Shown piece after piece: positions 23,258 through 44,601 of a stretch of DNA of 64,000 nt (the stretch's first letter is position 1; the number at the start of each line of letters is the position of its first letter). The notes under the pieces are model-generated. The model was given only the letters and a program-made list of their open reading frames with translations. It had not been told where the DNA came from and made no database searches. A program made the translations under genes and the position numbers. Where the stretch lies: assembly GCA_963818475.1 (NCBI GenBank), contig CAWFSF010000005.1, positions 256,001-320,000 of the forward strand. The letters are read 5' to 3'. This DNA is from Nitrospirota bacterium. GTDB lineage: Bacteria; Nitrospirota; UBA9217.

Positions 23258-26200
23258 CTAAGGTATCACCCTGATGAAGTCCACGCCTTCGAACGTCGCA
23301 GTCCCTATCCTGCCGGTCACGTGGACAGGCACCTGGTCGCCGTCCGGAAGGATTGCGATCATTGAGCTTCGATCGAACTTCACCTTGAGCACGTCATGAT
23401 CATGCTCCGCGCGGTCTTGATCGCACCCGTGATCGTAGTGATGATAGCTGTGATCATAAGGCCGCGTCTCGGCAGGGACGACACCTTCAAGCCTGATCGA
23501 GGATAGGTCCACGTCCAATGCCCGGTATCCATGGGGTAGTTCCATCTCTACCATGACCCAGTTGCCGTTGCTCTTTTTATTGAGCGTCTCGGGCTCCACC
23601 TCGATATCGACATTGATGCCGGTCTGAGGCACATGGACCGTAAAGGACGCGTTGTTCATCCAGGGGCCGTACCGGTCGCCGTCAAAGGCCCGCGCCCGCC
23701 ACTGGTAAGCAGTGTTATCTGAAAGCGGCGCGGCAAGCGTCATGGTCGTGATACCGGCGCCGCCCTGGGGCACGCCGGAGAGGGACTGGATAAGCGCCAT
23801 GCCGCTGTAGATCTCGACGTCGTACGTGAGGTTGTCGCTGTCGGGATCAACAGCGTTCGTTACTGCAAGGAGCGGGTTAAGCGTCGCAACGGTGCTTCCC
23901 TCCGCCGGAGAAGACAGGACCGGCGCGCCCGGCGCGTCGTTCGCGGTGTTCACGAAGAACGAGGACGCGTCCGACCAGCCGCTTGCAATAGCGCCGTCAA
24001 AGGCACGAGCCCGCCAGTAATAAGTGCCGTTCTCTGAAAGCGCCACCGGAACGGTCCAGGTCGTATTGCCCGGTGTTTCGGCAAGGACCCCGGAACTCGC
24101 TGCCAGGGTTGACAGTCCCGCATCTCCATAGACCTCGAACTCATAGGTCAGGACGTCCCTGTCGGGATCAGTCGAATTCCAAACTGACAGCACGGGGTTG
24201 GACACAGTCACGCCGGAACCGTTCGAAGGATTGGCCGGAACAGGAACGCTTGGAGCGTCGTTCGCGGTATTTACGAAGATGCTGATAATCTGCGACCACG
24301 CGCTCTCGGCCGCTCCGTCGCTCACTTTCGCGCGAACAAAGTATTGCGTATTTTCCTGCAGCCCTTCCGCGTGCCAGGAAGTGGTTCCCTGTCCTTCCGC
24401 GATGCCTCCGGAACGGAAGATCTCTGCGCTGTCGAAGGTCAGGACCGTGTCGATCTCGAAGAAATAGGTCAGGACAGCTGAATCAGGATCAGCGCTGTTC
24501 CTAACGACCACATCGGCGGCAAGAAACGGTACCGTGCTGTTGTCCAGAGGCGTGGTGATCAGCGGCGAACTCGGCGCATCATTTTCCGTGCTCACGAAGA
24601 ATCTGCCCGTTGTCGACCACGGTCCCTCGATCTGTTGGTCATCGGCCTGTGACCGCCAGAAGTACCAGGCATTTTCCTGGAGGTTTACCGGGACCTGCCA
24701 GGACGTCGTACCCTCGCCACCTGCAACCTTTTTCATGGTCGCGGTGATCTGTGCAAAATCGGGATCGAGGGCCAGATCGAAATTATAGGTAAGGACCGGG
24801 CTGTCCGGATCTGCGGCGTTCGTGACCGCGAGCACCGGGGCAAGCGTGTCTACCCAGGTGCCGTCAGCCGGACTCGTCAACGTCGGCGCCGAGGGCGGAT
24901 CGTTCGCGGTGTTCACCCGGAACGATGCTGCCGCCATCCACGGGCCGTACAGCTTTTCGTCATAGGCCCTGGCCCTCCAGAAATACGTACTGTTTTCCTG
25001 CATATCGGCCGGCACGGCCCAGGCGGTCGTCCCGGTCTGCTCAGCAATCGGTCCGGACGAAGCGACCAGGTGCATAAGCCCGCCGTCTGCGTATACTTCG
25101 AACTCATAGGTGATCCGGTCGTCGTTCGGATCCGCAGCATTGCTGATCGTGAGGAACGGTGTGAATGTGTCCACATCAGAGCCGGCGCCGGGCGAGAAGA
25201 GCGCCGGGACGGTGGGCGCGCCTTCAACTCTGAAATATGTTGCTGCAAGCGTTTCTTCGGTGCCGTTGATATGCGCCCGGAGAACGACGAGATAGTCCTT
25301 GGCACTGTAGGCCGTGGTATCGATCGTTCCGCTCCCTGAATAGGCGGCACCGATGGACAACGTCGCCTGGGACGAGAGGGCATCGTACACGGTCTGGTTG
25401 ACGGCATGGACGGCCTGGGCGGAAAGCGATATATCCTGCAAGTCGACATTTCCGATGTTCGTCACTGAATAAGAGACGTTCACGGGCTCGCCGGCCATGA
25501 GGCTCTGCTTGTCCACGGACACCTGACCCCGGAGTGCGGACTTGGGCGTTACGTTATTGCTGATCACGAGGTTCTGCGTGCCTGTGGCGATGATCGCGCC
25601 TGTCGCATCTTTCACTTCAAGCGTGACGGGATAGGTCCCCGGGGAGTACGCGGCGGTGTTCCAGAATGCCTTGAACGTGAATGACGCGCCGGGCATGAGG
25701 GTTGTGATGGTCTTTGTTTCCGAATAGAGCGCGCTTCCCTCCCCTGACCCTTGATCCATGGCCCTTGCGATTGTTATTTTCGCCGTCAGGTTTTCGTGAA
25801 CACCCTCTCCGCTTTGGCTCGTGATGACGGACGTTATCGTTGCCTGTTCGTTTGCGCTGTAGGATATTTTGTCCGTGACAAGCGCAACGCTGATGCTTGC
25901 GTCGAGGCTTCCGCTGTATGCCACGGTTTTCGTTATCGTCTGGTTTAAATCGCCGGTGCAGGTCGCGGTGTACGTCATAGCGCTGGTTATCTGCTGCGAG
26001 TACTGGAACAGCTTTGTTTCTCCGGGAAGCACCATGATTTGCTCTGATGTATCTAAATTCGCGCCCTGCACTCCGCATTCCGTGCTCGCAGCTACCTTGC
26101 CGACGTTATTGAGCGTCAGGGTGACAGGAAACGGATCGTTGCCTGGCCGCATCAGGCGCGGTGAGCGTTGCCGTCACGGCCGATGAGCCAACTTCGTATT

Positions 26201-29200
26201 GGTCTGCTATTTCGGCAAGATTCGATCCGGTCTGCGTCACCGTTCCGGCAAGCGAAGAGACTCCGACAGGTCCTGCATGGTTGTCGTGGTGAACGAGATG
26301 CCTTTCTTGGCCGGCACATCGAAAGGTTCCGTATAGATTGAACTTGGTTGCCGGCCGTCAGCTGACACCGTACGCTACGATAAGCTGTCGCACTAGCTGC
26401 CAGGTTTCTCACTTCCCCGGTGATCGTCACCGTCTCGCCGGGTTTGTAAATCTTTTTGTCCGTGCTGAAGGAGAGTATGGTATTCCCCTGGATAACATAG
26501 AAGGGATATTCCGAGGTCGCGATGGTCTGCCCGGTGCTGGAGGTCAGCGCGCCCTGCAGGTAGAGCTTGCCGGGAACATCGAGCGTGCCGATCGAATTGG
26601 TAAGATTAGAAACCATGCCCTGCGCCAGATGTATCGGCGCGTCGGTCTGCCAGAGGACGTCTCCCGCGTAATAACCATAGGTAACTTTAATATCGTTAAG
26701 AAGAGGGTAGTTATCGTGTCTGTTGTCGCCAAAGCAGCTTCGATCTCGATCCAACGGCCTTGGGACTGGTTATTGCCGATCCACTGGCTGTGATATAGTC
26801 GCTCCACGTTGCGATGGACAATCCAGCGTCGGTGTCAGAACTGCGGGTGCGAAGCTTTATTGATGTGCCGAGCGGAGTAGTCGTATTGAAGGTTATATTT
26901 TCCCAATGAGACTGTTGGCCGCCGTCATATTTAGCGCGCCACGTACCGGATGAAGCATATTTTGTGTTGCGCGCAGTGAAGTTATCAAAACCTGCGCTTG
27001 CGTTTCCATTACTCCCCATCCACACCTTCATAAGAGGTCGCACCGGTTCCGCTGTAAAATTCGCTACGTTTCCAAGCATGACCCAATTTGTTCCATCATG
27101 GTAATACGTGCTAAGCTGGCTGCCTGTTCTGGCAATGCGCAGTTTTCCCGAAGTGTCAGAAGTGGGGACTTCATCCGTGTTTGCCATCACATCATTGACC
27201 TTGATACCTCGCAGATAAAATTCGCCGCTGCTGTTATGCATCCGTTTGATCATCGCAAAATTACCCGAGAATTGACCCGCGTCCGCGACAATAGCCAATT
27301 CCGGTCCTGTATCTCCAGTGGCATTGGTGCTGAACTCGCTCCAATCAACCTGGATGTCAAAATCGTTCAATAAGTAAGACCAGTTCTTTGTTTCTACGTT
27401 CTCGCCGTATAAACCGTTATTCACCTTGATATACAGCTTGCCGTTTTGGGTGACAAATGACCCCGAGTTATTCCCCCACAGATCGAGCTTTTCCCATCGA
27501 TCCATATTCAATACTCCGGGATCGTAATTGTCATTAGCCGGCAGCAGCCGCACGGAATCAACCGTCTCGTTCTTGGTTACAATCCTGCCGGAGTTGATCT
27601 TAAAATTATCAAATTTGGCGTTTGCCGAATATCCCTGCCCTCGCCATATCCATAATTGAACGGAGGGTTTGTCCGCAAACTGTGAATACGTCCTGCTTAA
27701 CATTTGAGTCCAGCCGGAACCATTCCAGTAGTAAGTCGCAATATTGCTGCCCATTCTCGTAATCCTCAAGCGGCCGGAGGAAACATAGCTTCCCGCGCCC
27801 GCCGAAGCGACCCTGCTTCCGTTTATGTTAATACCGCTTGAATAGCCGCCCGATGACATATTTTTCACAAAGACCCAGTAAGTACTCGCATATAAAGCGA
27901 ATTCAGGGCCCTCGTCCAGGGCACTGTTATTCGAATCAAAATCAACCTGAATATCGAAATCACCGTCAAGCTGCCATAAACTTTTCGCACCGGATGCAGT
28001 CGTAGCATCATTTATGTACAGTTTGCCCGACTGAATACTGACATTGCCCCACGAGGACCATTTATTGCTATCAAGAGAAGTTTTGTCGAAATCATCATTC
28101 GGTATCAGCCAGTCATTCATGCCATATGTGTCTACACCGTTTCTAACCCCCTCTTGAAAATCGTTTTGACTCGCCCAGGTCTTCGACTTCTGGCTGTCCC
28201 CTGCCGCAGTGACCTGTAAATGCAGGTTTCCATTCTGGAGCGCGGTGCCGGTGTTGGTGATCGCACCGTAGCTCGTGATATTTTCGGTCGTGAGATAGCT
28301 CGGCTTATCGGTCTGGGCTGACAGGCCGGCCTTGATGCCGGCAATCGTGAGGGGCATGCTCACAATTTCGGTCTTTCCGGTCGATTCATCTTTGTAATTC
28401 GCGATGATGCTGTAACTGCCGTCCACCGCGCCGATAGGAATGGCGAGGGATGGTGTAGCGGTCGATCCGGCCGGTACAATTTGGCTATTGCTTCCCCAGG
28501 AAATTAATGCGGCCTTTGAATCGAAGAGATCCAGCGTATACTGAACGGTAGTATCAACTCCCCCGGTGTTCGAAATAACGGGGCTGATGCTTCCGCCCGC
28601 AGTATATGCCGTCTGGTCGAGCGACAGAGACAAAGCGGATTCCGGTATTGTGAACTGCGCACTCTGGACGGTAGTCGATCCCGACGGCAGGGTGAGCGTT
28701 ATGGTTGCCGTATGCTGCCCGGCAGTCATAGTATCAGGGATTGCAAAGGAAACCGGTATCTGAACACTTCCGGCACCCTCGCCCCCTGCGGGAGAGGGGG
28801 AAGCGTTATTGTTTTCGTAAAACCCGCATCCGGGACAGCAAGCGTGATCGTCATGCCCTCCTGGCTGAAATTTCCCGTATTGCTCAGGCTGGTCACGAGA
28901 TTCGCCGTTTCCCTGATCTTGTACGATGCCTTGTCGAACATCATGGTAGCGTTCACCGTGTTCGGCAGCTGGATCGTCATCGCCTGCCCGTCCATCGTTT
29001 CATCGCTCTGCGTATATGTGAGCGTGTATGCGCCGAACTTAATCGCAGGTAGCGATGGGTCATAAGCAAGAGTTTTGGTCTCACTTGTTCCCAAACTAAA
29101 CGACTGCGTCGCGCTGGATATCACCTGGCCGTCGGGGTCCGTGAGGATCACGTTGAGCGCACCGGAGGATACGGCGTATGTGCCAGTGTTCGCAAGGTTG

Positions 29201-30988
29201 AAGGAGACAGTGTTTGCGCCGGTGATGAATGCGGCGGGCAATACGGGGGTCACTGATATCTGGCTCGTGAATATGCCGAAGTTGGTCGATACATCCCCTA
29301 GTTTCGCCGCGTTTGCGTCATAGACCTCCGCCAGAACCGTGTAGAAACCGCGCTGGGGATTTGCGGGCAGCGCAAAGTTGAGGCTCTGGACAGTCGGGCT
29401 TTTTGCGATCAGGCTCAGGTCCAGGCTCGTGTCGAATACGCTCGCGCCGGAGGGATCGCTTACCCGCAATTTCAGCGTGACCGGATATCCGATCGAGCGG
29501 TTGTTCCTGATGATGATGGAAACGCCGGCGGTGTCGCCCTTCCTGTAGATCGCCTTGTCGGTCTCGGCAAATACATTCACGAAAGCGGGAGGGGTCTTGG
29601 ACATCATGGGGTTGTAGATCAGGACCCCTCCGGCTGCCAGATCGCCGGTGATGGGCACGTTCCAGTATACGTCCCCAGTGGGTCCGGCGGGGGTCCCGAC
29701 GGTGATGGTTCCGGGATTGACGCCCGTGATCTTGTACGAGCCGTCAGCAGCGGAAATCGCCTGAAGGGCGTAGATACCCGAAGTCGCCTGTACGGTTACG
29801 CCAGCGAAGGGGATATTATTATCAGCATTCCAAACAATGCCCATGACAGTGCCGGATATGGGATTGACGGACATGACGACCTTGCCGAGGTTGATGAAGG
29901 TGCCTGCGCTGATAGATGCGGTGACGGTGAGTGGTGAATATCCGGCCAAGGAAAGGGTTATCTGCTGACTGCCGACCGGGATGCCGGAGAGCGCGAACAT
30001 GCCGCTTGCGTTCGATGTGGCGGTGTATGATGGATCACCGGTGAGCAGAATGCTGACGCCTGATAGTAGCGTATTAGTCGTTGCATCTACGATGGTGCCC
30101 ATGAGCGAGCCGGTTGTTGCTGCGGGCGGCGGCGAGGCGGGTATGTGCTCGGAGAGATAGAGCGCCTTGAGCGCAAGGGCTGTGCTGTAAGGATCGTCGT
30201 TCCAGGAACCATTGGATGATTGCGTGGTTGTGATGTAGTTCAGAGCATTGCCGAGGATCGTCGCGTCGGTTGATATGCCGACTAATGCGGAATACGCGAG
30301 AGATGTTTCATACACAGTGGATATAGGGTATCCGAACCCGCCGTCTGTGTTCTGATGACTGGAGAGATATGCCGTGGCTTTAGTGATTGCTGTGGCGATA
30401 GTCGAAGTTTGGGGGAATTGCTGGAGTGTGGCTGCGACGATTGCGGTCATGTAGATTGTGCTGGGATCGTCTTTGAAGAAACCCAAATCCGCCGTCTGCG
30501 TTTTGGCTGTTCGTGAGATAGGCGAGTCCGGTGTTGCTGACTGAGAGATCGGGGTGATTCGCGGCTTTAAGGGCTTGGAGGGCGAGGGCGGTTGAAAGAG
30601 GGTCATTTGCAGGTCCATTTTTATAATCCCAACCACCATCCATGTTTCGACGACCGAGCAATGTGCTTATTAGTCCGCTGGAATCAGTGCCGCTGCTGTA
30701 CAAGGAATATATTTGACGAGATAACTCATCGGCAGAGTTTGCAGTTTGAAGGGCAAGCCAAGTTATTCCGTTTGTATAATTTACAGAACCAGTGCTAGTA
30801 GATTTTAATGCATTGGCCACTTCAGCGCTGTATACAACAGTCAAATCTGCCTGGGAGCCCCAACTGCCATCAGTGTTTTGATTTTCCGATAGCCATGTTA
30901 TGCCGTTAACTATTGAGGTGCTTTGTGCGTAGCAAGGAATCGACCATAATGAGAAAGCAATTATCGTCAGGCTAAGAATCTTTTTCAT
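23258..30988 (-). CDS. Giant secreted/surface protein (~2,570 aa if about 7 frameshifts are repaired)
   Basis: Signal peptide MKKILSLTIIAF; prenyltransferase-like QNxDGxW/FG repeats; carboxypeptidase-regulatory-like and CARDB/Ig-like domains; two lectin-like domains; five FN3-like repeats. Fragments join in shifted frames, e.g. SPAGGEGAGSVQIPVSFAIPDTMTAG at ~28800. Confidence 0.7.
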
Positions 30989-31040
30989 ATAGACTCCACA
31001 TAATTTGAGACTGCCTTGAGCATCGGTGAATATCGTCAAT

Positions 31041-31761
31041 TTATTTGAATGGGTTTATTTTAATGACATTCAAGAAAGAATCAAAAGTATATACATTACC
31101 ATTCTTATCAAAATTATAAATCGGTCCATCTTCATCAGAAGCTATTTCAACACCATTACATTGGGCTGCTATCTTTTTACCATCTCTAACAGTAATTGAA
31201 TACAATATCTTTCCTGGATATTTTGTATCTGGGATATAAGATTCAATGTCATAAATATGATTGACGAACCTACCCTTTGGGATATGAGCAAATATGCCTT
31301 TCTGCCTATCGTCACGAGAACCGACCGACTCTTGATATTTTCCATCGGGATAGTAAATTTCTACTCTGTCTTCAAAAAAATTCCAGACATACACCTTATC
31401 ATCTTTATCAATACCTATATCCTGGATGATATGGCTAATTTCGGGCTTAATCTTTTTCACAGGTGGCTGCAACTTGAATTCAAATAATAATTTCCCCGTA
31501 TCGTTGAATTTCAAAACACGGTAATTTACCGAGTTACCAACATAGATATTACCCTTACTATCTATGGCAAGCGCGCGAGGGCTGACAGAAAATCTCTCGC
31601 CGTCCGGATCACCAAGAGTCTTTTGTAGCTTTCCGAAACCATTAGGCCCCTCCGAGTTTTTAATAACCAGCTCTTTAAAACACCTTTCTCCCTTCAGCTT
31701 GAGCATGTGATGTCATCATGCAGATTAAAATAATAGCAAATGCAATAATTGCTCTTTTCAT
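31041..31761 (-). CDS. Exported NHL-repeat/beta-propeller protein (extra T near 31676); candidate immunity protein
   Basis: GGAG RBS, signal peptide MKRAIIAFAIILICMMTSHAQA, PRALAIDSKGNIYV; AT-rich. Confidence 0.65.
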
Positions 31762-31796
31762 TTGGGCTCCATCGTTACTAACGCATCGTGCATTCT

Positions 31797-32708
31797 TTAT
31801 CTAATGAACACAGGGTTTCTCGCATCCTCAGCAACTTTTCTCTTTTGGCCTGTCACTGTGTTAACATAACTAATGTCCAAATTGACGTTTTCTGCTTGGT
31901 CCTCGTAATACAGATCATTAGACAAACCCAAGCTAAACTTTGCCGGAGCAAAGGCTGGTTGAATTTTTATTTCTTTTATTTTTTCCATTTTTTCTGCACT
32001 ATATAAACTGACGGACTCGGAACTACCAACTGCTAAGGTATTATCATCAAACCATTCAGAATAGTAGCCTTCGCCAACTTTAATTAGATTGTCATTAGAA
32101 TTTGTCATATTTTTCAAATAAACATTCCACGCTCCGGAGGCAAAAGAAATTCTTCGGCCATCTGGAGACCACTTGGGAGCTGAATATTGTTTAGGACTGT
32201 CTACTGTCAGGTCCTCTTTTCGAAGTGACTTAAGATCAATGAGCCAAAGATGCCTAACCGTTTCTTTGTAAGCTTTGTTAAATGAAGAGGTATGGAATTC
32301 TTTAAGAGAATTGCTTATAAAAACAACTTTGTCGTTTGCAGGGGAAATACTCGGATTGCTCATGTCAGTTTCTAAATCAGTTAAATATTTTTCCCTCCAA
32401 GTTGCGATGTCCAATTCGTACATCTTTTTGAAATTTCTCACGTAAACTATTTTTGTTAAATCATACGATACACAATAATTAGTTATATCCTTTTTAGCAG
32501 TCAATTTCTCTTGGGCCCTTCTAGGCATATCCATAAGCCAGATGTCACCATTTTTCAGATAAAGTAATTTTTTCTGCAATGTTGTTTTAGACGTGCGTAC
32601 ATTCTTCGAGCTTTGTATGCTCGCAGCGTAACAGATCGACATGGAACAAATTAAAGCAGTCATAACAGTAACCATTGGCATAAATGTCTTTCGAGTTAAC
32701 ATTTTCAT
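31797..32708 (-). CDS. Exported TolB-like (PD40) beta-propeller protein; candidate immunity protein
   Basis: Signal peptide; NPSISPANDKVVF, APKWSPDGRRISF; AT-rich. Confidence 0.75.
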   Translation of the reverse strand: MKMLTRKTFMPMVTVMTALICSMSICYAASIQSSKNVRTSKTTLQKKLLYLKNGDIWLMDMPRRAQEKLTAKKDITNYCVSYDLTKIVYVRNFKKMYELDIATWREKYLTDLETDMSNPSISPANDKVVFISNSLKEFHTSSFNKAYKETVRHLWLIDLKSLRKEDLTVDSPKQYSAPKWSPDGRRISFASGAWNVYLKNMTNSNDNLIKVGEGYYSEWFDDNTLAVGSSESVSLYSAEKMEKIKEIKIQPAFAPAKFSLGLSNDLYYEDQAENVNLDISYVNTVTGQKRKVAEDARNPVFIR

Positions 32709-32727
32709 TCTCCCATGAGATGTTGAA

Positions 32728-35700
32728 CTAAGGATTTCTTATAGTCCCATAACCAACGAATAGTTCACCTGCATAACAGCTTGTACATGGTTTATTTGCA
32801 AGTGCTGAATTTAGTCTTTTTCCGGTAAGAGGCGAAATATTTACATTAGGATATTCTGTATTCAAGTATTTAATCCCAACGCCTGAATTACTCGCATCAA
32901 TAAATACCACTGTTGCGTCGTCGGTGGTTGATGGCGCAATTACAATTCCCTCATGACTTAATGGATGATTCGGACCTGTGGTATCGTTGAAGAAAACGAT
33001 GTCGCCGACTAAAGGGGCACGATCACCTACACCACCATTTAAGTTTTGTGTAACTGCAATCAAATAATGATAATAGACACCATTACCATTATAAAGTAAG
33101 CCATATTGTTGCATCAGATTATTGCCGCAATTTGCCCACTCATCTAAGCATATACCTGCTGCCCAATATGCTTTCCGCACCAAACCAACACATTGGCCAA
33201 CCTGCTGATAGCCTTGCCCTAAGAGATCTGCGGCTGTCAAAACGATTGGCTCGCCTTCCTCAAGTGATGCGGCTGTAGCAATTGTATTCCTCGTTTGAGG
33301 ATCAATCCCGTCTTTCACCCATCCAAGTGGTTCTTTATGAAGCTGAACAATTTGCATCCCATCTTTTTTATTCGTACTATCACTACCCGCCAGTCCGCCG
33401 CTGATCATATAGGCACCGGCTCCGGTAAGGGTATCCTTGATAATATATCCCGCCCCGCTCCAGTCATTTATCTGCACGTTCGTCTGAGAGATAGTCACAT
33501 TTTTACCGGCGTTGACTGCATTCTGGACGTCTGTTTTGATATCCGAACTTACCTGTAATGTTGGAAGGATCTGGCTGATGTTTGCTGCATTGATGTGCTG
33601 AATCGGAATCCCACTCGTTGCCGCTGTCTGCAACGCTTTGACAGCCGAGACAGATAAGAATGCATCGATCTTCTCATAGATGTCATGCTCGTAGTACGAG
33701 CCTACCAGCCCATGCACATCCATGTATGCCAGCTCTTTATTCGCGTCCCCATCTCGCGCTGATACGATTATTCCGGTCATCGCAACGTCCATGTTTATAC
33801 CGGACGGCATAGCTGATTTCGGCAAGCCAAATACGCTTGAAACTGTAAGGGTGAATGATGTAATTCCCTCGGAAATAGTTCTAGCGATTACCGTGTTGAA
33901 GAGCTTGGCGCCGGACTTCTGGACCTTATCGTTCGCAAGAAAATAGGTCGTGGCAAGGATAAACAGATGCTCTCCAATCAAATCGTCTGTTCCGAGCGTA
34001 CCGGCTGTTTGCGATAAGACGTTAGTATTCAACTGGTATCTTCGCTTTCCGAGCACATTCTCATTGATCCCCTGAAGGTCCAGCCCAATGGCATAGTACG
34101 CTCCAGCGAGCAGTTTTTTGTCTCTGGTTTCGGTATTTCCGTTCGGCTGCGTAAACCGCATGGTCAAGCTCTGATCCGCTCCAAGAGTTGTGGCTTCTCC
34201 GGTTAGCTCGATGACACCCTCTACACGGAGTACTGGTTTGAGATTCAACATATACGCTGGCACATCATAGATAAAACCTCCATAATTCGCTATCAAGGTT
34301 TCGTCAGTAGACGTCGCAGGTATGTATGAAACAGTGATCCGCTTTCCTGCTAGTTCCGGGGTGGAAGCGCTATATGAGACATTTGAGCCTGTTGCAGGAT
34401 TCGTGAGGGTGAATGCAACTGTTGCCGCCATTTTGGCAGTGATGCTGGCAAATTTCGCCCCTTGAACAACTGTTATATAGGGCAAAGTAGATGGCAAAAA
34501 ATGATATGTCTCTTGCGTTATCTCACGATAGCCTTTCACATCCACGATTGAAGTGTCAGGCATGTTAGCGTCAAGATAGTTTTGAATTTGACTTTGATAA
34601 TAATGCACAGCGTTCTGGTTCTGGACTTGACTGAGATATGCGTCCTGGCTGAACGGCACGGCTGCAGTGATATCAAAACCGTTTGTGTAAGTGTATTGTT
34701 TGAAGCTGCCGTCCATGGGTATCCAGGTTTTGAGGCTATCATCCATCATGGTGCCTCGGTAGTTGCCGTAAGGAATGTAGGTTTCCACCCAAAAATGCTC
34801 CAATCGAAGTGATTTTATCATGCCGCCTGAAATGATCACACTAACCGGCACATTTCCGCTTGCGATAAAGTTAGCCGCAGCCCTGGCATCCGTGAAACCA
34901 CCTACCCAATTCATCGCTTTATCAATCGGCACCTCAATCGTTCCATAAGCATACTTTGCGGGTAAGTTTGATGTTCTGAGTAAGGCAATCAACAGCGATG
35001 CAGTGTCGATATCATTACACTGTTTTGACTGGAGGCACATGTCCGCGCCCTGGATGCTGCCGTAGGTAGGGACAAATTCAATATTATTCTGCACCCATTC
35101 AAGTATTTTGGTAGGTTTGTTGTCAAGTTGGGCCGCGAGGTCTATGATATCCTGGGTGAACTGTACTTCGGGGGTCTCGGCGAGGTCGTCAGCTGTTGGC
35201 GCGTTTTGCGTCAGCGCGATGAGGAATGTTGATGAATCGGCGAAGGTGAATTGCGGAATTGCTCCCTCACCCCAGCCCTCTCCTCGGACGGGTAGAGGGA
35301 GACCAAGAGATATATCGCTGTCCGGCCCGTTGAATGCAAGCTGAACAGATTTACTGGCCAATGTGGAATGCGGAATGCGGGCTGCGGAATCTACAATCCG
35401 TGTGAATTCAGGCTCAAGCGTGGCCAAATTCTTTATCTTTTTTCCCTGTGGGAAGTCTCTCTCGAATTCCTCTTTTTTCAGTCTCGGTTCGCGCGCCTTG
35501 GTTGTCTTCCGCGCACTGAAAGGAAGATTATTCGGATCGAGCTTCTGATGCTTTGACGGTGCTTTGACCTTTGCAAGATGCAGCCTTACCTTTTCTACTT
35601 TGGCCCTGCGGTCTGATTTGGTCTTTGCCTGCTCCACACCGTCGAGGTTTGCCCTCAGCTCTTTCAGATTATCTTCATAGTGCTTTACGAATTTATAATG

Positions 35701-36087
35701 CCGATCGAGGATCTCTTTCGGAAGCTTTGCGTCTTTAAGCTTCTTCTCCGTGGCGCTGAATTCTTTTTTGAACTCGACATCCGCTGATTCGATGTCTGCC
35801 CTTTTCGCCTTGATGGCATCCCGTTCCCGCGTATCGTCCTCGCCCCTGTCTTCTTTATCCCTGACCTTGTCAACATTCTCCCGGATCCCGTCGAGGGCTT
35901 TTTCAAACCGTTCCTCGGGCCGTCCTTGCCCCTTGCTACTTGCTACTTGATCCTGACTGATTCCCGACTTGCGCGCCTCCCGCTCCGCCGCATACGCAAC
36001 CGCCTGCCATAACGGCAAAAAACTCCAGCAAAAAAAGAAAAGCGTAATGGCTGAGATGTTTCTTAAGACACGATGGAACGTCCGCAT
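32728..36087 (-). CDS. Secreted transglutaminase-like domain protein with C-terminal CHAP/NlpC-P60-like domain
   Basis: GGAGG RBS, signal peptide; PTYGSIQGA..CNDIDTASLLIALLR, EHFWVE, WIPMDGS; C-terminal QCVGLVRKAY, PLVGDIVFF, SHEGIV. Confidence 0.8.
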   Translation of the reverse strand: MRTFHRVLRNISAITLFFFCWSFLPLWQAVAYAAEREARKSGISQDQVASSKGQGRPEERFEKALDGIRENVDKVRDKEDRGEDDTRERDAIKAKRADIESADVEFKKEFSATEKKLKDAKLPKEILDRHYKFVKHYEDNLKELRANLDGVEQAKTKSDRRAKVEKVRLHLAKVKAPSKHQKLDPNNLPFSARKTTKAREPRLKKEEFERDFPQGKKIKNLATLEPEFTRIVDSAARIPHSTLASKSVQLAFNGPDSDISLGLPLPVRGEGWGEGAIPQFTFADSSTFLIALTQNAPTADDLAETPEVQFTQDIIDLAAQLDNKPTKILEWVQNNIEFVPTYGSIQGADMCLQSKQCNDIDTASLLIALLRTSNLPAKYAYGTIEVPIDKAMNWVGGFTDARAAANFIASGNVPVSVIISGGMIKSLRLEHFWVETYIPYGNYRGTMMDDSLKTWIPMDGSFKQYTYTNGFDITAAVPFSQDAYLSQVQNQNAVHYYQSQIQNYLDANMPDTSIVDVKGYREITQETYHFLPSTLPYITVVQGAKFASITAKMAATVAFTLTNPATGSNVSYSASTPELAGKRITVSYIPATSTDETLIANYGGFIYDVPAYMLNLKPVLRVEGVIELTGEATTLGADQSLTMRFTQPNGNTETRDKKLLAGAYYAIGLDLQGINENVLGKRRYQLNTNVLSQTAGTLGTDDLIGEHLFILATTYFLANDKVQKSGAKLFNTVIARTISEGITSFTLTVSSVFGLPKSAMPSGINMDVAMTGIIVSARDGDANKELAYMDVHGLVGSYYEHDIYEKIDAFLSVSAVKALQTAATSGIPIQHINAANISQILPTLQVSSDIKTDVQNAVNAGKNVTISQTNVQINDWSGAGYIIKDTLTGAGAYMISGGLAGSDSTNKKDGMQIVQLHKEPLGWVKDGIDPQTRNTIATAASLEEGEPIVLTAADLLGQGYQQVGQCVGLVRKAYWAAGICLDEWANCGNNLMQQYGLLYNGNGVYYHYLIAVTQNLNGGVGDRAPLVGDIVFFNDTTGPNHPLSHEGIVIAPSTTDDATVVFIDASNSGVGIKYLNTEYPNVNISPLTGKRLNSALANKPCTSCYAGELFVGYGTIRNP

Positions 36088-36258
36088 GATTCCTCCACTG
36101 ATAGAGTGCTGCAAAAACACGATAGCGCAACTAAATGCTGAAAATGTGCGTCAGGGTAGCATAGTCTTTGTTACTTGTCACCTGTCAGAAGTGACAGGTG
36201 TGCTGAGCAGTGATAAGGAGGTTCTATGACAGGTGAGACGAAAAAGAAGTGCGCGTTA

Positions 36259-36393: not shown

Positions 36394-36429
36394 TAAAAAA
36401 ACCTGAGAATCTGTACGACTCTCAGGTTT
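36394..36429 (-). terminator. Rho-independent terminator of the RND/rhodanese operon
   Basis: Minus strand AAACCTGAGA-loop-TCTCAGGTTTTTTT. Confidence 0.75.
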
Positions 36430-38411: not shown

Positions 38412-41400
38412 CTAAGTCGCTTCCCAATGCTTCTTTTCCACCATGTAGTAGAACAGCGGCACCACCACCAGCGTCAGCGCCGTTGACGCCAGCATCCCGA
38501 AGATGAGCGCCAGGGCCAGGCCCGACCAGACCGGGTCGGTCACGATCACGGCGGAGCCGAGGATCGCGGCCGCGGCAGTGAGCACGATCGGCCTGAAACG
38601 GATGGCGCCTGCCTCGAGCAGCGCCTGCTCCAGCGGCAGGCCTTCCTGCTTCTTGTCCAGGATGAACTCAAGCAGCACGATCGAGTTCCTGACCACGATG
38701 CCCGCCAGGGCGATGACGCCGATCATGGACGTGGCGCTGAAGTAGACGTTCGTCATGGCAAAGCCCGGCATGATGCCGATCATCGAAAGCGGGATCGACG
38801 CCATGATGACCACGGGAATGGTGAACGACCGGAACCTGCCGACCAGCAGCAGATAGATCGCGATCAGGGCCACGCCCATGGCAGCGCCCAGGTCGCGGAA
38901 CACGTCAAGGGTCAGCTTCATCTCGCCGTCCCACTTGATCTTGTAACCGTCAGGCACAGGGTGCTTCCAGAGATAGCGCATCATATCGATCACGGCATAG
39001 ACCTGGCTTCGGTCTCCCATCTCGGCGTACACATAGGTCACGGGTTCAAGGTTCTTGTGATGGACGGCCTTGTCCATCTCTGCGGGCACGATCGTTACGA
39101 GCGACGAGAGCGGCACCTGGCTGCCCTGCGGGTTCGAAAGAAAGACCTTGTCCATGTCCGACAGGCCCGTGCGGTCGCTTTTCGACAGCCTGAGCATGAT
39201 CGCCACGGGGTCCTTTGCTGCCGGCTGGTGCAGGGTCGATACTGCCATGCCGGCTACGGATATCCGCAGGGTCTGGACGATCTGCTCCGTCGAGATGCCC
39301 ATGAGCGCAGCCTTTTCCTTGTTCACGATAAGCTGGTACTTCTCCTGCTTCTCCTTCACGCTGTCGTCGATGTCCACGACCTCGCTGGTCTTTGCAAAGA
39401 GCGTCCTGATGTCCGCGGCGATCTCGCGCTGCTTGTCGTAATCGGGCCCGTAGATCTCGGCCACCACCGTGGCGCGGACCGGAGGGCCCGGAGGGTCTTC
39501 AACCAGCTTGATGTTCGCGCCGTATTCCTGTCCCAGCTTTGTGACGGCGGGCCTGAGCTTCAGCACGAGCTTCTCGCTTGAGGTCGTGCGGTCTTCCTTG
39601 TCGATCAGGTTCACGCGGATATCGGCAAAGTGGCTTGCCTCGCGGAACGCGCCTCCCCGGAGCAGTCCGTTAAAGTCCATGACCGAACCGGTGCCCACAA
39701 AGGTCTCGTAGTCCCTGACCTCGGGAATGCGCTGGAGATGGTCGCCGACAGCACGCGCGACACGGTCCGTGTTCTCGATCACCGTGCCTGCCGGCATATC
39801 GATGGACACCAGGAAGGTGTTCTTGTTCGCCTTGGGCAGCATGCGGAACTTCACCAACTGGAACAGGGGAAAGGTCATGGCGACAACAAAAACCACCATG
39901 ATGATGCCCAGGAATATTTTTCGCTTTTTTGCGTTCACCAGCAGCGGCGCAAGCACCTTTTTGTACAGAAGATAGCTTCTCGTCTCTTCGAGCGGCTGCA
40001 TCTTTTCGCCATGATGATCGGCCTTCATCAGCCGGTAGCTCGCCCAGGGCGTCACCACGAAGGCCACCACGAGCGAGACGATCATCGCCACGGGCACGTT
40101 AAAAGGTATGGGCATCATGTAAGGCCCCATCATTCCCGTCACAAAGGCCATGGGGATGAAGGCGAGCACCACGGTCAGGGTCGCCAGGATCGTGGGCATG
40201 CCGATCTCGTTCACCGCCATGATCGCAGCCTGGAGCCGCGAGTGCTGCTGCAGCTTGTAGTGGCGGTGAATGTTCTCGACCACCACGATGGCGTCATCCA
40301 CCAGAAGCCCCAGAGACAGGATGAGCGCAAAGAGCGTGATCCGGTTGATGGTCTGGCCCGCCACCATGCCGATGGCAAGGGTAAGGAACAGGGTCAGCGG
40401 GATGGCAAGCGCCACAATGGCAGCCTCGCGCCATCCGAGGGTGAAGAACAACAGGACGATCACCACGATGATCGAGACCACCAGATGGAACACGAGCTCG
40501 TTCACGGCATCGTTGGCGGTCTTTGCCGTCATTCCTCGTGACCGTGACACTGATCCCCGCAGGGATACTGGTCTTCTTGAGCTCATCGAGCTTGGTCAGA
40601 ATTTCGCCCGAGATCTGAACGGCGTTCAGCTTCTGCCGTTTCGCTAAGGCCACGGTCACAGCAGGCCGTTCGGCCCCGTTGCCCCCGGCCGCGAGGCCCT
40701 CATGGGCATGCGCGCCAAAGGCGATGCGCGTCAGCTTCACCGTCTCTTCGAAGCCGTCTGAGACATCGGCCACGTCGTTCAGATAGACCGGCTTGTTGTT
40801 CGCCACGCCTACGACCGCGTTCTTCAGTTCGCTCGCACTGCTAAAGAACCCGCCGGTCTCGAGGGTCAGTTTTTTGCTCCCCTGCTCCAGGTCTCCCGAG
40901 AGCAGGTTCGCGTTCGACGCCGTGATGGCGCCGGCGATCTGGAGCACCGACAAGCCGTAGCCTGAAGCGCGCAGGGGATCGAGCGTCACGCGCACCTGAC
41001 GGCTCCGGCCGCCGATCACGACCGTGTTGCCCACTCCCGGCACCTTGCGCAGTTCATCGAGCGCATGATCGGCAACGAGCCGGAGCTGCGCGTCGTCATA
41101 GGTTGATCCGGGCGCGGCCGAGAACGTGATTGCCACGATCGGCACATCGTCCACATCAATCGGTTTCACCAGCGGCTGGGATGCTCCCGGAGGCGCGAAA
41201 TCCATGTTGGACATGAGCTTGTCGTAGAGCTTCACCAGCGACCGCTCCTTGTCCTGGCCCACGAAGAACTTCACCGTGACCATGGCCATGGAGTTCATCG
41301 AGACCGAGTACACGTCCTCGACGCCCGGGATCTCCCAGAGCTTTGCCTCGAGCTTTTTTGAAACCAGCTCCTCGACCTCTTTGGCGCTCGCGCCGGGCAG

Positions 41401-41567
41401 CATGACCATCACGTTCGCCGCAGGAACCACGTTATCTGCGGGTTCTCTTCGCGCGGCGTGAACCAGAGCGCGAACAGCCCCAGGATCGTCGTTGCCGCCA
41501 TGAGCAGCACGGTGAGCTGGGAATTGATGAAGTACTGCGTTATCTTGCCGCTGATGTTGAGTTTCAT
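38412..41567 (-). CDS. RND efflux permease (AcrB/CusA family; frameshifts near 41430 and 40530)
   Basis: TPREENPQ, GLLVDDAIVVVENI, GIVVRNSIVL, RFRPIVLT. Confidence 0.9.
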
Positions 41568-41601
41568 TGTTCACACCTTTATATATACTAAAGCCGAAGC
41601 C

Positions 41602-41712
41602 AAATCTTTTGACACTGATCACGGCGGATTTACTTATGATCAAGGCGGATTAAGATCTTGACGTATCAGTGAAAATCATATTTTTATCCGACCTGATCCG
41701 TGTCAAAGATTT
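41602..41712. repeat. Family A-related inverted-repeat element (TTTGACAC ends)
   Basis: aaatcttttgacactgatc ... gatccgtgtcaaagattt. Confidence 0.7.
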
Positions 41713-41739: not shown

Positions 41740-42833
41740 TTATTTCTGCGCACTGACGACTTTCCTGCCATCGAGCCGCGTTTCATGCCTGCTCACGATC
41801 ACCTGGTCGCCGGCCTTCAGACCGGTCACTGCCTCGACGCTGTCGCCGTTCACCTCGCCGAGCTGGACCATCTGAAAGACCGCGCTCCCCTCGGCTGATA
41901 CGATATACACACCTGAAATGCCCGACAGTTCCACGATCGCCGCTCTCGGGACCAGGATGGCCTCGCGCTTGCCGGTGCTGAACAGGGCCTTGCCGTACAT
42001 GCCGGTGATCAGGCTCTTGTCGGACGGGATATCTATCTTTACGATAAATGAATGGGTCCGGACATCCGACGCGGGAACGACCTGCGCCACCGTTGCCTTG
42101 ATATCCCTGCCGGGCAAGGCATCGATCTGCACGATCACGGGCTTGCCCGTCTGGATGTAGCGGAGGTCCTGCTCCCGCACCGTCACTTCGAGCCTCAGGT
42201 TCCGGTTATCCTCGATCTTGATGATCGGCTGGCCCGGCATCGCCATCTCTCCAAGATTGATATGCTTCTCGATGATCTGGCCGGAGATCGGGGCTTCGAT
42301 GATCGTGTAGCTTTCCATTGCCTTTGCACCCTTCAGGCCTGCGTTGGCTGAATCGAGTCCGAGCGTCGCCTGGTCCATTTCCATCTGGGTGGCGGCCTTC
42401 TCGTCAAAGAGCCGCTTGATCCGGTCATACTGAAGTTTGGCGTTATTGTAGGCAGCCTGCGCCTGAAAGACCTGGGCGCTGATCTCTCCGCTCTCGATCC
42501 TGAGCAGCAGTTTGCCCTGCGAAACGTGGTCGCCTTCTTTCGCGTTCAGCGCCACGACCTTGCCCATGATCTTGCTCGACAGCACCGAACTGTTCCTGGA
42601 GCTGAGCGTCCCTACGGCGGCCACCACCGCGTCGATGGTCTTCGGCGCGATCATCACGGACGATACCGGGATCGGCGCCTCGTCCTTCTTCGACGCTTCC
42701 GCATAGCTCGTGTCTTTCCCGAGCAGGCCGTACCCCACACCTAGAATCGGCCAGAGCCAGTATCAAGGAAGCTCCATAGAGCTTTATTCCTGTCGATCGA
42801 TCCGATCTTTTCTTTTATGGTCACGATATTCAT
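41740..42833 (-). CDS. RND periplasmic adaptor subunit (frameshift near 42745)
   Basis: SSKIMGKVV..KEGDHVSQG, IEAPISG, GLKAGDQV. Confidence 0.9.
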
Positions 42834-42889: not shown

Positions 42890-44251
42890 TTATAGCGTTC
42901 CCTTCGCCAGCTTCAGCTCGGCCTGGGAGATATTGTTGTCGTACAGCGCCTGGAGCGCGTTGGTCCGCGCGCGGATGAGCGAACTCTCCGCGCCGAGCAC
43001 ATCAACAAAGGTCGTCATGCCTGATTCGTACCGCTTCTGAACGATCCTGAGGCCTTCCTCGGCTTCCTGTACCGATGAGGAGGTCGCTGCAATGCGGTCC
43101 GTGGACGCCGCAAGATTATAGAACGCCTGCCTGACCTGGAGCTGCTGCCGCCGATCGGGTCTGCTCTTCCAGCGATCCTCATTCTGCTGCTCAATGCGAG
43201 TCGCTTCCTTCACCTTTGCCCTCGTCACGAGCCCGTCAAAGAGGTTCCACTGCAGCACGGCCATGACTGCCCAGCTTTTCGCATCGCTGCCCGCGAGCTG
43301 GTCGCTGTTCCAGTCCATCTGGCCCATGAGGTTCAGGTTCGGCAGATACTCGGTGCGCGCCTGGCTCACGGATTTCTCGGCGTTCTGCCGGTTCAGGCCC
43401 ATCGAGATCAGGTCCGGCCGTTTTGCCGCCGCCTCTTCAATTGCCGCGTTCAGGTCGGCCGGCGCCGGCTGGGCTGCAAGCGTTCCTTCGATCTCGTATT
43501 CCGTTCCCTGCGGCACACCCATGGAAAAAGCCAGGTTCGCTGCGGCAAGCTTGATGCCGTTCTCCGACCGGGTCAGCATCTCCTGCACCTCGGCCAGCTG
43601 CACCCGGGCGCGCAAAAGGTCGGACTGGAGCACGGCGCCCGCATTGAACCGCGCCTCGGCGAGCTTCACGTTCGCCTGGCTCGTCTCCTGCGACTGGAGC
43701 GCCACCTTGTGATATTCCTTTGCAAGCAGCAGCCCGTAGTATGCCTTCACCACGTTGTAGATGGTCTCCTGCCGCGTGCGTTCCCGGTCCTGGACCGATG
43801 CATCCCGTGCGAGCGCTGCCTGCGTTCTGCCGATATATTCCCTGCCGCCGTTGAACACCGGCTGCATCACCGACAGCCTCGTGTTGTAATTGCTGATCGG
43901 CTCGGGGTTGTTCATGATCGCGGGACTGAAATCTGCCGGGGAAACGATCTCCTGGTTCAGCTTGGTGCCGAGCACCATCAGCGGGTTGTCCGACCTGCTC
44001 CAGGTCTCGGAAAGCGTCACCTTCGGAAGAAAGCCCGACGCGGACTTGAGCACGCCTGCATCTGCGGCCTCGATCTGCGCGTCGGCCGCTTTGAGCCCGG
44101 GATTGTTCCTGAGTGCTGTTTCGATCGCCTGCGGAAGCGTGAGGCTTTCCGCTGCATAGCTGTAGATCGCCACTGCCGCCATGAGGAGCAGGAACAGCAT
44201 GGTGCAGGTAATGACGCGCATGGTTTTTCGCAGAAGCCTGTTCATGTTCAT
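42890..44251 (-). CDS. TolC family outer membrane protein
   Basis: Signal peptide, LTLPQAIETALRNNP, QPVFNGG, WNLFDG; short compensated frameshift near 43145-43195. Confidence 0.9.
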   Translation of the reverse strand: MNMNRLLRKTMRVITCTMLFLLLMAAVAIYSYAAESLTLPQAIETALRNNPGLKAADAQIEAADAGVLKSASGFLPKVTLSETWSRSDNPLMVLGTKLNQEIVSPADFSPAIMNNPEPISNYNTRLSVMQPVFNGGREYIGRTQAALARDASVQDRERTRQETIYNVVKAYYGLLLAKEYHKVALQSQETSQANVKLAEARFNAGAVLQSDLLRARVQLAEVQEMLTRSENGIKLAAANLAFSMGVPQGTEYEIEGTLAAQPAPADLNAAIEEAAAKRPDLISMGLNRQNAEKSVSQARTEYLPNLNLMGQMDWNSDQLAGSDAKSWAVMAVLQWNLFDGLVTRAKVKEATRIEQQNEDRWKSRPDRRQQLQVRQAFYNLAASTDRIAATSSSVQEAEEGLRIVQKRYESGMTTFVDVLGAESSLIRARTNALQALYDNNISQAELKLAKGTL

Positions 44252-44601
44252 CACCCTTGCGGTATGGTTGCGCAGGATCCTGCAGCAAACCCGGCGCTGT
44301 TCCAGACAACGATGCCGCCTTCGAGATTTTTAACGTTGTAGCCGAGACGCGCCAGGTGTGCGCTGGCATAAGCGCTCCGGTTGCCGACCCTGCAATAGAC
44401 AACGATCTCTTTATCCTTCGGAAGTTCCCTCACCCGGAACCCCAGTTCCTGCACTGGGATCAGGTAGGACCCCGCTATTGCCTCTGCAGCGTTCTCCTGC
44501 GGAGTCCGCACATCGAGCAGCAGGAAATCCTCCCCTGAGGTGATCTTTCTGTTCAGCTCATCAGGACCTATATTGTCGAATCCATGGGATTGAAAAAACA
44601 T
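44251..44601 (-). CDS. Rhodanese-like domain protein
   Basis: LLDVRTPQE, YCRVGNRS, NLEGGI. Confidence 0.9.
   Translation of the reverse strand: MFFQSHGFDNIGPDELNRKITSGEDFLLLDVRTPQENAAEAIAGSYLIPVQELGFRVRELPKDKEIVVYCRVGNRSAYASAHLARLGYNVKNLEGGIVVWNSAGFAAGSCATIPQG

Follow-up and report, generated by a model that had tools for sequence, protein, structure and literature searches.

What is encoded by four closely spaced genes of a Nitrospirota bacterium, the first of which specifies an exported protein with a transglutaminase-like core and the last a protein of giant size? The genes lie in a 64-kb window, the whole stretch of DNA analysed here (64,000 nucleotides of contig CAWFSF010000005.1, assembly GCA_963818475.1), whose first letter is position 1 of the coordinates given below. 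We consider it probable that the locus is a polymorphic toxin-immunity-like system of a type not described before, in which the carrier is new and the giant a conserved partner. This reading is favoured because six features that in combination define polymorphic toxin-immunity systems are seen here: a constant carrier, a sharp motif boundary, alternative envelope-acting enzyme tails, tail-matched partners, orphan cassettes and a mosaic low-GC centre.

The cluster is as compact as the first-pass annotation described it, with four co-oriented genes that all lie on the minus strand, as do the features of these genes located below. Gene 1, the carrier, spans 32728..36120 and yields 1,130 amino acids (aa) from a GTG start or 1,119 aa from an ATG at 36087, the shorter form being identical to database protein P0001. 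It is followed by gene 2 (31797..32708), gene 3 (31041..31761) and the gene for the giant partner (23258..30988, ~2,577 codons if read through). With the start of gene 3 placed at the signal-peptide open reading frame (ORF) at 31761 and that of the giant at an ATG at 30988, the intergenic gaps are 19 bp (gene 1/gene 2), 35 bp (gene 2/gene 3) and 52 bp (gene 3/giant).

The carrier, its boundary motif and its tails

Read from its N-terminus, gene 1 comprises a signal or anchor segment, a helical domain, a disordered linker, a transglutaminase-like core, a middle region, a junction and a tail. The helical domain (35566..35919, approximately residues 68-185 of the 1,130-aa form) is conserved, with L122, P123, R129, L144 and L171 invariant among homologues. 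The papain-fold core (34711..35160, residues 321-470) matches Pfam Transglut_core (PF01841) with 39.5 bits against a cut-off of 23, in keeping with the transglutaminase-like core first proposed for the 1,119-aa protein, and its Cys, His and Asp triad columns are all occupied. The middle region (33427..34710, residues 471-898) is conserved, beta/alpha-rich and confidently modelled, with a predicted local distance difference test (pLDDT) score mostly above 85; residues 470-910 gave no Pfam match even at E<=1, pre-toxin families included, the region has no fold match in PDB or BFVD, and a protein atlas search returned no usable match. The Gly-rich junction noticed in the first-pass annotation is located at residues 899-913 (33382..33426), where the motif TGAGAYMISGGLAGS forms the boundary between carrier and variable tail. 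The tail itself (32731..33381) is NlpC/P60-CHAP-like and a predicted peptidoglycan hydrolase.

An AlphaFold2 model of gene 1 built with 50 homologues has a mean pLDDT of 78.1 and a predicted template-modelling (pTM) score of 0.71 and contains, in 1,119-aa numbering, an N-terminal hydrophobic helix, long helices at residues 57-174 and disorder at 178-293. Foldseek comparison of the whole model returned only transglutaminase-fold proteins (FXIIIa, 3isr), none at E<=0.001. In a second model covering residues 470-1130 (pLDDT 78.5, pTM 0.82), the tail alone matched solved structures, namely the NlpC/P60 hydrolases 6bim, 9ubf and 7cfl, with probabilities of 0.99-1.00 and target TM values of up to 0.65 (0.64-0.65 for 9ubf and 7cfl), again none at E<=0.001; it also resembles CHAP/NlpC endolysins among the viral models of BFVD. 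A sequence search of solved structures with the tail alone found nothing meaningful, and a family profile gave marginal NlpC/P60 and 3isr matches. The catalytic Cys (in GQCVG) and His (in SHEG) are both present, C966 and H1045 are invariant in 25/25 relatives, and their Cys-then-His order is that of an unpermuted papain-like fold. The peptidoglycan-hydrolase-like C-terminal domain of the first-pass annotation can thus be specified as CHAP/NlpC-P60-like, though its scores lie below the Pfam cut-offs; as such it would be a cysteine peptidase predicted to cut peptidoglycan stem peptides.

The nucleophile column of the core holds Cys in 38 and Gly in 12 of 50 aligned proteins. Six residues before the nucleophile Cys (~368 in 1,130-aa numbering) there is a second Cys (~362), and the two positions co-vary: in the 112 proteins, out of 120, whose motif could be found, the upstream/nucleophile pair is CC in 74, TG in 34 and CG in 4. 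This pattern suggests that the two residues form a disulfide or act as a pair, rather than that the nucleophile is simply free. Since Gly replaces the nucleophile in 38/112, catalysis is dispensable in about a third of the carrier family.

Residues 250-930, used as the query of a word-indexed search, matched 769 proteins at E<=0.001, and the best 120 of these were kept for analysis; Nitrospirota, Thermodesulfobacteriota, Smithella and Nitrospinota are among the sources named for these relatives. The pattern W.G.GY..D..TG.GAY.ISGG occurs in 120/120 of the kept homologues. Searched against 1.84 billion cluster representatives, a 126-position profile of the junction module gave 4,417 matches at E<=0.001, 3,048 at E<=1e-10 and 856 at E<=1e-30. 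Closer to the window, the carrier family is present in 13 of 41 related genomes, the window's included, with up to 8 matches per genome; leaving the window's genome aside, 11 of 24 genomes of the same family are positive, and among the phylum's other families 1 of 16. When one genome per species was scanned, 584 relatives were found, and 74 loci were taken for examination; two families recur in them: the carrier, with 109 ORFs at 74 loci, and the giant, with 66 ORFs at 49 loci. According to their record titles these loci are mostly from Nitrospirota, with others from Geobacter/Geobacteraceae, Smithella/Syntrophaceae, Nitrospinota, Deferribacteres, Thermoanaerobaculia and a few proteobacteria. 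One of them, L031, belongs to the culturable Geobacter argillaceus ATCC BAA-1139 and is of the transmembrane-tail type.

What follows the motif is diverse. The 119 tails of at least 30 aa fell into 46 blast clusters: 44 tails are NlpC/P60-CHAP-like (the window's included), 7 carry an SLT/lysozyme-like motif that has no Pfam confirmation, 65 contain hydrophobic segments and 3 are short. Among the best 150 junction-profile matches there are further soluble types, comprising Pfam-supported Peptidase_M23 tails (P0216, 93.7 bits; full-length P0252, 79.3 bits), a Peptidase_M15_3 tail (P0262, 46.3 bits) and phospholipase A2-like and caspase-like matches that are both sub-threshold in Pfam. These, with the multi-transmembrane tails, are the unrelated C-termini that had been anticipated after GAY(M/L)ISGG. 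Judged by its sequence, every recognisable tail type is one that acts on the cell envelope. A Tox-ART-HYD1 match in the tail of P0111 is weak (E = 0.002, below cut-off) and has no counterpart in P0089 of the same tail cluster, and it is not used as evidence. For the 55 hydrophobic tails with two or more segments, the medians are 114 aa in length and 3 in segment number; a glycine-zipper idea for these transmembrane tails was rejected on a median of 0 GxxxG per 100 aa.

Block-wise identity profiles locate the transition between constant and variable parts exactly at the motif. Identity falls from 85-97% to 17-45% within the next 40 aa in 9 of 10 pairs plotted, including P0010/P0020 (95% to 36%), P0028/P0030 (94% to 35%) and P0031/P0091 (91% to 17%), the tenth pair (P0004/P0020) having a common tail; the window carrier and P0002 go from 81% to 39% across the motif. 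Within tail classes there are pairs whose last 300 carrier residues are 81-95% identical and whose tails are only 16-57% identical. The tail is more similar than the core in 7 of 6,555 pairs (for example P0012/P0050, core 39%, tail 58%), and the nearest neighbours by tail and by core are clearly discordant for 10 of 73 proteins, which argues for exchange rather than merely faster drift. We thus propose that gene 1 would be a Sec-exported carrier whose constant part ends at the near-invariant W.G.GY..DP.TGAGAYMISGG, with an exchangeable effector tail after it.

Orphan cassettes point in the same direction. Among 95 junction modules at 71 loci we found five orphan ORFs (at L011, L027 and L076, and two at L071) in which motif and tail are preceded by just the last 100-250 carrier residues and no transglutaminase core lies upstream; a sixth candidate, at a contig edge, was left out of this count. 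Similarly, of 118 new representatives in which the motif was found by pattern, 102 are short (<650 aa), and 91 of these 102 begin with Met as far as the sequence alone can tell. The orphan cassettes were unforeseen in the first-pass annotation and add support to the polymorphic-toxin reading. At one such locus (L011:14538-16543) the orphan is a 355-aa ORF with ~115 of the last carrier residues, the motif and a different NlpC/P60 tail, and the order is main carrier, gene 3-like protein, orphan ORF, a 94-aa protein with two transmembrane segments, a 158-aa protein with a signal peptide, and giant. In its layout this locus resembles the orphan toxin-immunity pairs found at contact-dependent inhibition (CDI) and Rhs loci.

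Downstream genes, the giant partner and the swapped centre

Gene 2 encodes a 303-aa protein with a signal peptide and a TolB/DPPIV-type beta-propeller (Pfam DPPIV_N, 29.1 bits against a cut-off of 22, with TolB-type matches too) and is a candidate periplasmic immunity protein. Homologues stand directly after related tails at L010 and L018 and are also present at L026 and L027, and no second copy was found elsewhere in the genome. Gene 3, the second candidate immunity protein, is an NHL/SBBP-type propeller (NHL 22.2 bits, cut-off 20; SBBP 25.3 bits, cut-off 20.5), and six loci (L009, L010, L011, L012, L015 and L069) have a homologue of 301-348 aa, with a signal peptide, after a group-A CHAP tail. 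Its own signal peptide (MKRAIIAF...HAQA, 31675-31761) is in a different frame from the 221-aa body (31041-31706), which indicates a fifth frameshift at the window locus in addition to four in the giant. The first-pass annotation had genes 2 and 3 as exported propellers and signal peptides on all four genes. The Pfam matches behind the propeller assignments are modest, if above their cut-offs, and the signal peptide of gene 3 is present but out of frame with the part that it should export.

The nature of the downstream gene follows that of the tail. After soluble tails, 17 of 18 next ORFs have one hydrophobic segment, at the N-terminus, and no other, and their lengths are 199-428 aa; after multi-transmembrane tails, 25 of 33 are themselves multi-transmembrane. 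Fisher's test for this match between tail and next ORF gives p = 7e-8, a value that overstates the support since the loci are related and not independent. Particular families co-vary as well: CHAP group A tails occur with gene 3-like or gene 2-like propellers, SLT-like tails with a PD40/YNCE-type propeller family, and NlpC/P60 group B tails with YARHG-domain proteins. A metagenome locus with an M23 tail (L083) has the same order of carrier, two signal-peptide proteins and the N-terminus of a giant. The downstream genes are thus variable, as had been expected, with families that differ between loci and match the tail type. A single invariant C-terminus and neighbourhood shared by all homologues was not seen; the tails are unrelated and the downstream genes vary. 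We propose that the downstream genes (here genes 2 and 3) encode cognate immunity proteins, predicted to be sited where the tail acts, which would be the periplasm for soluble tails and the membrane for transmembrane tails. Complex prediction with tail residues 905-1119 and mature gene 2 scored 0.01, a result that counts neither way on binding.

The fourth protein is predicted to be a conserved, adhesin-like partner of 2,300-3,000 aa that would scaffold, display or aim the carrier. It starts with a signal peptide and an N-terminal alpha/alpha toroid of the prenyltransferase/TED-like type, followed by CarboxypepD_reg, MG2/CARDB immunoglobulin (Ig)-like domains, two LamG-like (DUF1583) domains, FN3-like repeats and a C-terminal domain. 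The first-pass annotation took gene 4 for a single protein of ~2,570 aa, which it is not in this assembly: it is spread over five open frames (31054-30380, 30666-28726, 28999-26711, 26769-26152 and 26173-23258) and so contains four frameshifts. At other loci many giants are intact, as single ORFs of 2,300-2,994 aa. Homologous giants have the N-terminal toroid and the CARDB repeats in common and vary in their middle modules, which are FG-GAP propellers elsewhere and LamG-like here. The single MG2 match (39 bits against 32.8) and a TED_complement match near its cut-off recall alpha-2-macroglobulin, from which the overall architecture differs. A thioester in the toroid was considered and rejected, there being no conserved Cys column in the N-terminal 420 aa of 34 giants.

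The partnership of carrier and giant is conserved, as first proposed. In the 38 loci with at least 5 kb of downstream flank, the giant's N-terminal domain is encoded within 5 kb in 28 and at any distance in 31; by tail type it lies within 5 kb in 12/12 loci with soluble tails, 5/6 with one transmembrane segment and 11/19 with multi-transmembrane tails. Several contigs carry tandem arrays (L019/L049, L011/L030, L071, L040) of two or three carrier-partner-giant modules each, so that up to ~36 kb is devoted to the system in several genomes.

Two further loci of the family in the same genome, on contigs C6 and C2, allow the window copy to be compared with close and distant paralogues. At C6 (~1629393-1641693, minus strand) the carrier has a canonical NlpC/P60 tail, different from that of the window copy; next come a protein of 364 aa that has a signal peptide and ends in a YARHG-like part, and then a giant, open for 1,991 aa and with one frameshift. 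By blastn, window and C6 have 91% DNA identity over ~770 nt (36206-35436), which include the upstream region and the first ~230 codons of gene 1 with the helical domain, and the two giants have 97.6% DNA identity over 7,342 nt, up to the stop codon; between 34985 and 30592 no similarity was detectable. Within this dissimilar centre lie the low-GC tail, both small genes and the giant up to codon ~150, and the flanks are conserved. It takes in a low-GC variable cassette at 30592..33400 that is composed of the tail, both small genes and the same ~150 giant codons. GC content is 55.8% for the window, 48% for the gene 1 core, 41.6% for the tail, 36.4% for gene 2 and 36.8% for gene 3, then 42.6% for the first 150 codons of the giant and 55.6% for its remainder. 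The AT-rich stretch from the toxin tip through both small genes that had caught attention at first is therefore real and also reaches the giant's 5' end. The C2 locus (~548000-560400, minus strand) is more distant, with a carrier of ~1,900 aa in three frames that has an extra beta-rich insert and an NlpC/P60-like tail, ORFs of 219 and 174 aa, and a giant of another kind, at least 1,720 aa long, whose repeats are prenyltransferase-type and propeller-like.

Competing readings

We infer that the tail would be toxic and neutralised by the downstream protein, that it would be released and pass the outer membrane, and that the giant would have a role in this. Several observations weigh against such a reading. 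No secretion component recurs across the 74 loci, and the proteins of the window have no match to RHS, haemagglutinin, VgrG, PAAR or other trafficking families in Pfam or NCBIfam; the first-pass annotation had likewise seen no RHS/YD, haemagglutinin, VgrG or PAAR motif. None of the known domains for secretion or trafficking was found, which leaves export from a diderm cell without an explanation. Hydrophobic tails on a Sec substrate should insert in the producer's inner membrane, which an anchor would fit equally, and 8 of 19 loci with multi-transmembrane tails have no giant within 5 kb. The window tail stays under the Pfam cut-offs (CHAP 19.6-21.7 bits against 26, NLPC_P60 16.4 against 23), although P0059, a relative from the same tail cluster, passes with 35.4 bits, and peptidoglycan hydrolases also serve self-remodelling. 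Among the tails classified, no nuclease or other cytoplasm-acting type was seen. Broad tail class changes only 3 times on a FastTree phylogeny of the last 600 carrier residues of 108 proteins, and since it tracks the carrier clade in this way, exchange occurs mainly within classes, unlike the free mixing of Rhs and CDI. Finally, the ORF calls, transmembrane counts (by a Kyte-Doolittle threshold) and signal-peptide calls are simple heuristics. The antibacterial polymorphic-toxin reading of the first-pass annotation fares well in the comparative tests and less well where tail class is linked to clade and where gene 3 and the giant are frameshifted.

One alternative concerns the window copy and says that it is a decaying, non-functional remnant in this genome, whatever the family does; we regard this as possible, if somewhat doubtful. 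The five frameshifts fall within ~8.5 kb (one in gene 3, four in the giant) and none was found in the ~8 kb of rpoB and rpoC, a further point against a working toxin system here, and there are at least three frameshifts in the C6 carrier and at least two in the C2 carrier. With gene 3 and the giant frameshifted in the assembly, the window copy may not be fully functional. However, the source is a metagenome-assembled genome (7 contigs, 91% complete, 6% contamination) in which an AcrB gene in the window is likewise split. The window giant, moreover, is a 97.6% repeat of the C6 copy, from which it differs by scattered single-base gaps, where consensus or polishing errors are likely. A search of public sequencing runs turned up one DNA run, which contained 6% of the words sampled, and no RNA run. 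Genes 1 and 2 are intact, as are homologous loci elsewhere; at L010, for example, genes 1-3 are unbroken and the giant stays open up to the end of the available sequence.

For the family as a whole, the main rival is a self-directed envelope module, which we judge unlikely. Here the carrier would be an accessory enzyme or an anchor for the adhesin-like giant, its tail opening the producer's peptidoglycan (NlpC/P60, M23, M15, SLT-like) or anchoring it in the inner membrane, so that the giant is assembled or held, and the role of the small proteins encoded downstream would be to regulate or inhibit the hydrolase. Envelope-spanning machines are known to include dedicated peptidoglycan hydrolases, and the constancy of the giant downstream (28/38 loci and every soluble-tail locus, with its own giant for each tandem copy) fits this proposal, as do the dependence of tail class on carrier clade and the expectation that a Sec substrate with a hydrophobic tail would have in it a stop-transfer anchor. 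Yet a housekeeping anchor is not expected to show a break from 95% to 17-36% identity at one motif, and tails that are closer than their cores, orphan cassettes and a swapped low-GC centre are equally unexpected. The phospholipase A2-like and caspase-like tails, below cut-off as they are, would be ill-suited to peptidoglycan remodelling, and the family is patchy even within one bacterial family (the 11 of 24 genomes above).

A kin-recognition or identity system rather than a lethal weapon, with tail and partner as matching determinants (as are Proteus IdsD and IdsE) shown together with the giant surface protein, would account for the hypervariable transmembrane tails paired with small multi-transmembrane partners (25/33) and for the inclusion of the giant's first ~150 residues in the cassette swapped between window and C6, but it is highly improbable given that the soluble tails are enzymes with conserved catalytic residues, which points to damage and not recognition, and that surface exposure is only presumed.

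Within the polymorphic toxin-immunity reading there is room for a narrower proposal on delivery, namely that carrier and giant form a new Sec-dependent, contact-dependent route for envelope toxins in diderms that works without type V or type VI machinery; we put it forward as a speculation that is rather unlikely to be right in full. The N-terminal helical domain of the carrier would dock on the giant, which would reach the surface and bind neighbours via its exchangeable LamG or FG-GAP modules; the tail would then be released at the TGAGAYMISGG junction into the target envelope, and the giant's own N-terminal toroid would co-vary with the cassette.

Known systems and the surroundings of the locus

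In the published survey of classical polymorphic toxins (Rhs, CdiA/CDI and MafB), these have a constant N-terminal carrier, a conserved motif before a variable C-terminus and a gene directly downstream, as well as orphan motif-plus-tail cassettes and a swapped centre of deviant GC, in all of which they are like the present locus (Zhang et al. 2012, PMC3482391). Unlike them, our carrier is without RHS/YD, two-partner secretion (TPS), PAAR, VgrG, LXG or MafB-N domains and has a Sec signal only; the TGAGAYMISGG motif and the ~430-aa region before it match no Pfam family; and only envelope-acting tails were seen, in broad classes that track clades, with a 2,300-3,000-aa partner conserved downstream.

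The same survey already describes Sec-type polymorphic toxins with N-terminal 'inactive transglutaminase' domains (PMC3482391). These are similar in having the transglutaminase fold in the N-terminal half, a signal peptide and variable C-termini, and loss of the nucleophile in part of our carrier family (Gly in 38/112) is a further likeness. As described there, the domain comes directly after the signal peptide, is followed by RHS repeats and has a degenerate triad (PMC3482391). In our carrier a ~120-aa helical domain and a ~100-aa linker precede the core, which begins at approximately residue 321, and there are no RHS repeats; the triad is intact in the window protein and in 74/112 relatives.

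A close parallel for the pairing of hydrolase and propeller is Tse1/Tsi1 of Pseudomonas aeruginosa. Tsi1, the immunity protein to the peptidoglycan hydrolase Tse1, is reported to be a partial beta-propeller closest to those of DPP IV (PMC3391265), and gene 2, whose propeller is of the DPPIV_N type, comes immediately behind an NlpC/P60-like tail. Tse1 is a free-standing small effector that a type VI system injects; the window hydrolase is instead the tip of a 1,100-aa Sec-exported carrier, with no linked type VI genes.

The giant has two partial analogues. Bacterial alpha-2-macroglobulins such as ECAM/YfhM, which are encoded with PBP1c, are likewise very large exported proteins with MG2/CARDB-type Ig domains, a TED-like toroid and a peptidoglycan enzyme as neighbour. 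The giant differs from them in having its toroid at the extreme N-terminus with no conserved Cys and no CxEQ thioester, a LamG-like or FG-GAP middle and FN3-like C-terminal repeats, and in that its neighbour is a hydrolase-tipped carrier, not a synthase. LapG, a small single-domain periplasmic cysteine protease that is transglutaminase-like and controlled by LapD, processes the giant adhesin LapA, a type I substrate, and thus offers another case of a transglutaminase-fold periplasmic protein encoded with a giant adhesin-like protein. Unlike LapG and LapA, both proteins here have Sec signals, and the carrier is 1,100 aa long with a variable tail and a nucleophile that is dispensable in a third of relatives.

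A full-text literature search found no description of this carrier, of its motif or of the carrier-giant pairing, which is not proof of absence; Pfam, NCBIfam and PADLOC have no model for the carrier beyond Transglut_core, and the PADLOC anti-phage models gave 0 families for 7 proteins or pieces at E<=0.001. If the toxin-immunity reading is right, there is a large uncharted arsenal of thousands of sequence clusters, which no family model matches beyond the generic transglutaminase, in Nitrospirota, relatives of Geobacter and Smithella, Nitrospinota, Acidobacteriota and other groups. Polymorphic toxins would be extended to a new carrier and a new delimiting motif, with a catalogue of envelope-acting effectors and of candidate immunity proteins, beta-propellers in many cases. 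The lineages concerned are important in sediments, in groundwater and in the cycling of nitrogen, iron and sulfur, settings in which little is known of how bacteria antagonise one another. Such a system would raise the question of how a Sec-exported toxin leaves a diderm cell and what the conserved giant does.

The genes that flank the cluster are of housekeeping type: enoyl-CoA hydratase, a resistance-nodulation-division (RND) efflux operon, lipid A acyltransferase and lipoate ligase. A hairpin with a 13-bp stem and a T-run lies at 36399-36429 (minus strand), after a CBS-domain gene and ~280 nt upstream of the gene 1 start; as a consensus match only, it is consistent with gene 1 opening its own transcription unit. 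A promoter and terminator scan of the window did not rise above shuffled sequences, and the sigma-54 promoter consensus had 0 matches within the window. Elsewhere, a sigma-54-dependent response regulator (Response_reg, Sigma54_activat and HTH_8) is encoded near the carrier in 10 of the 74 loci, for example at L010:815-2284. In the RND operon of the window, the AcrB-type pump (38412-41643, minus strand) is split by another frameshift into overlapping ORFs, 38412..40586 and 40294..41643, which match Pfam ACR_tran positions 323-1020 and 41-321, respectively. Its operon mates are an HlyD-type adaptor (41740..42738) and an outer-membrane factor (42890..44254).

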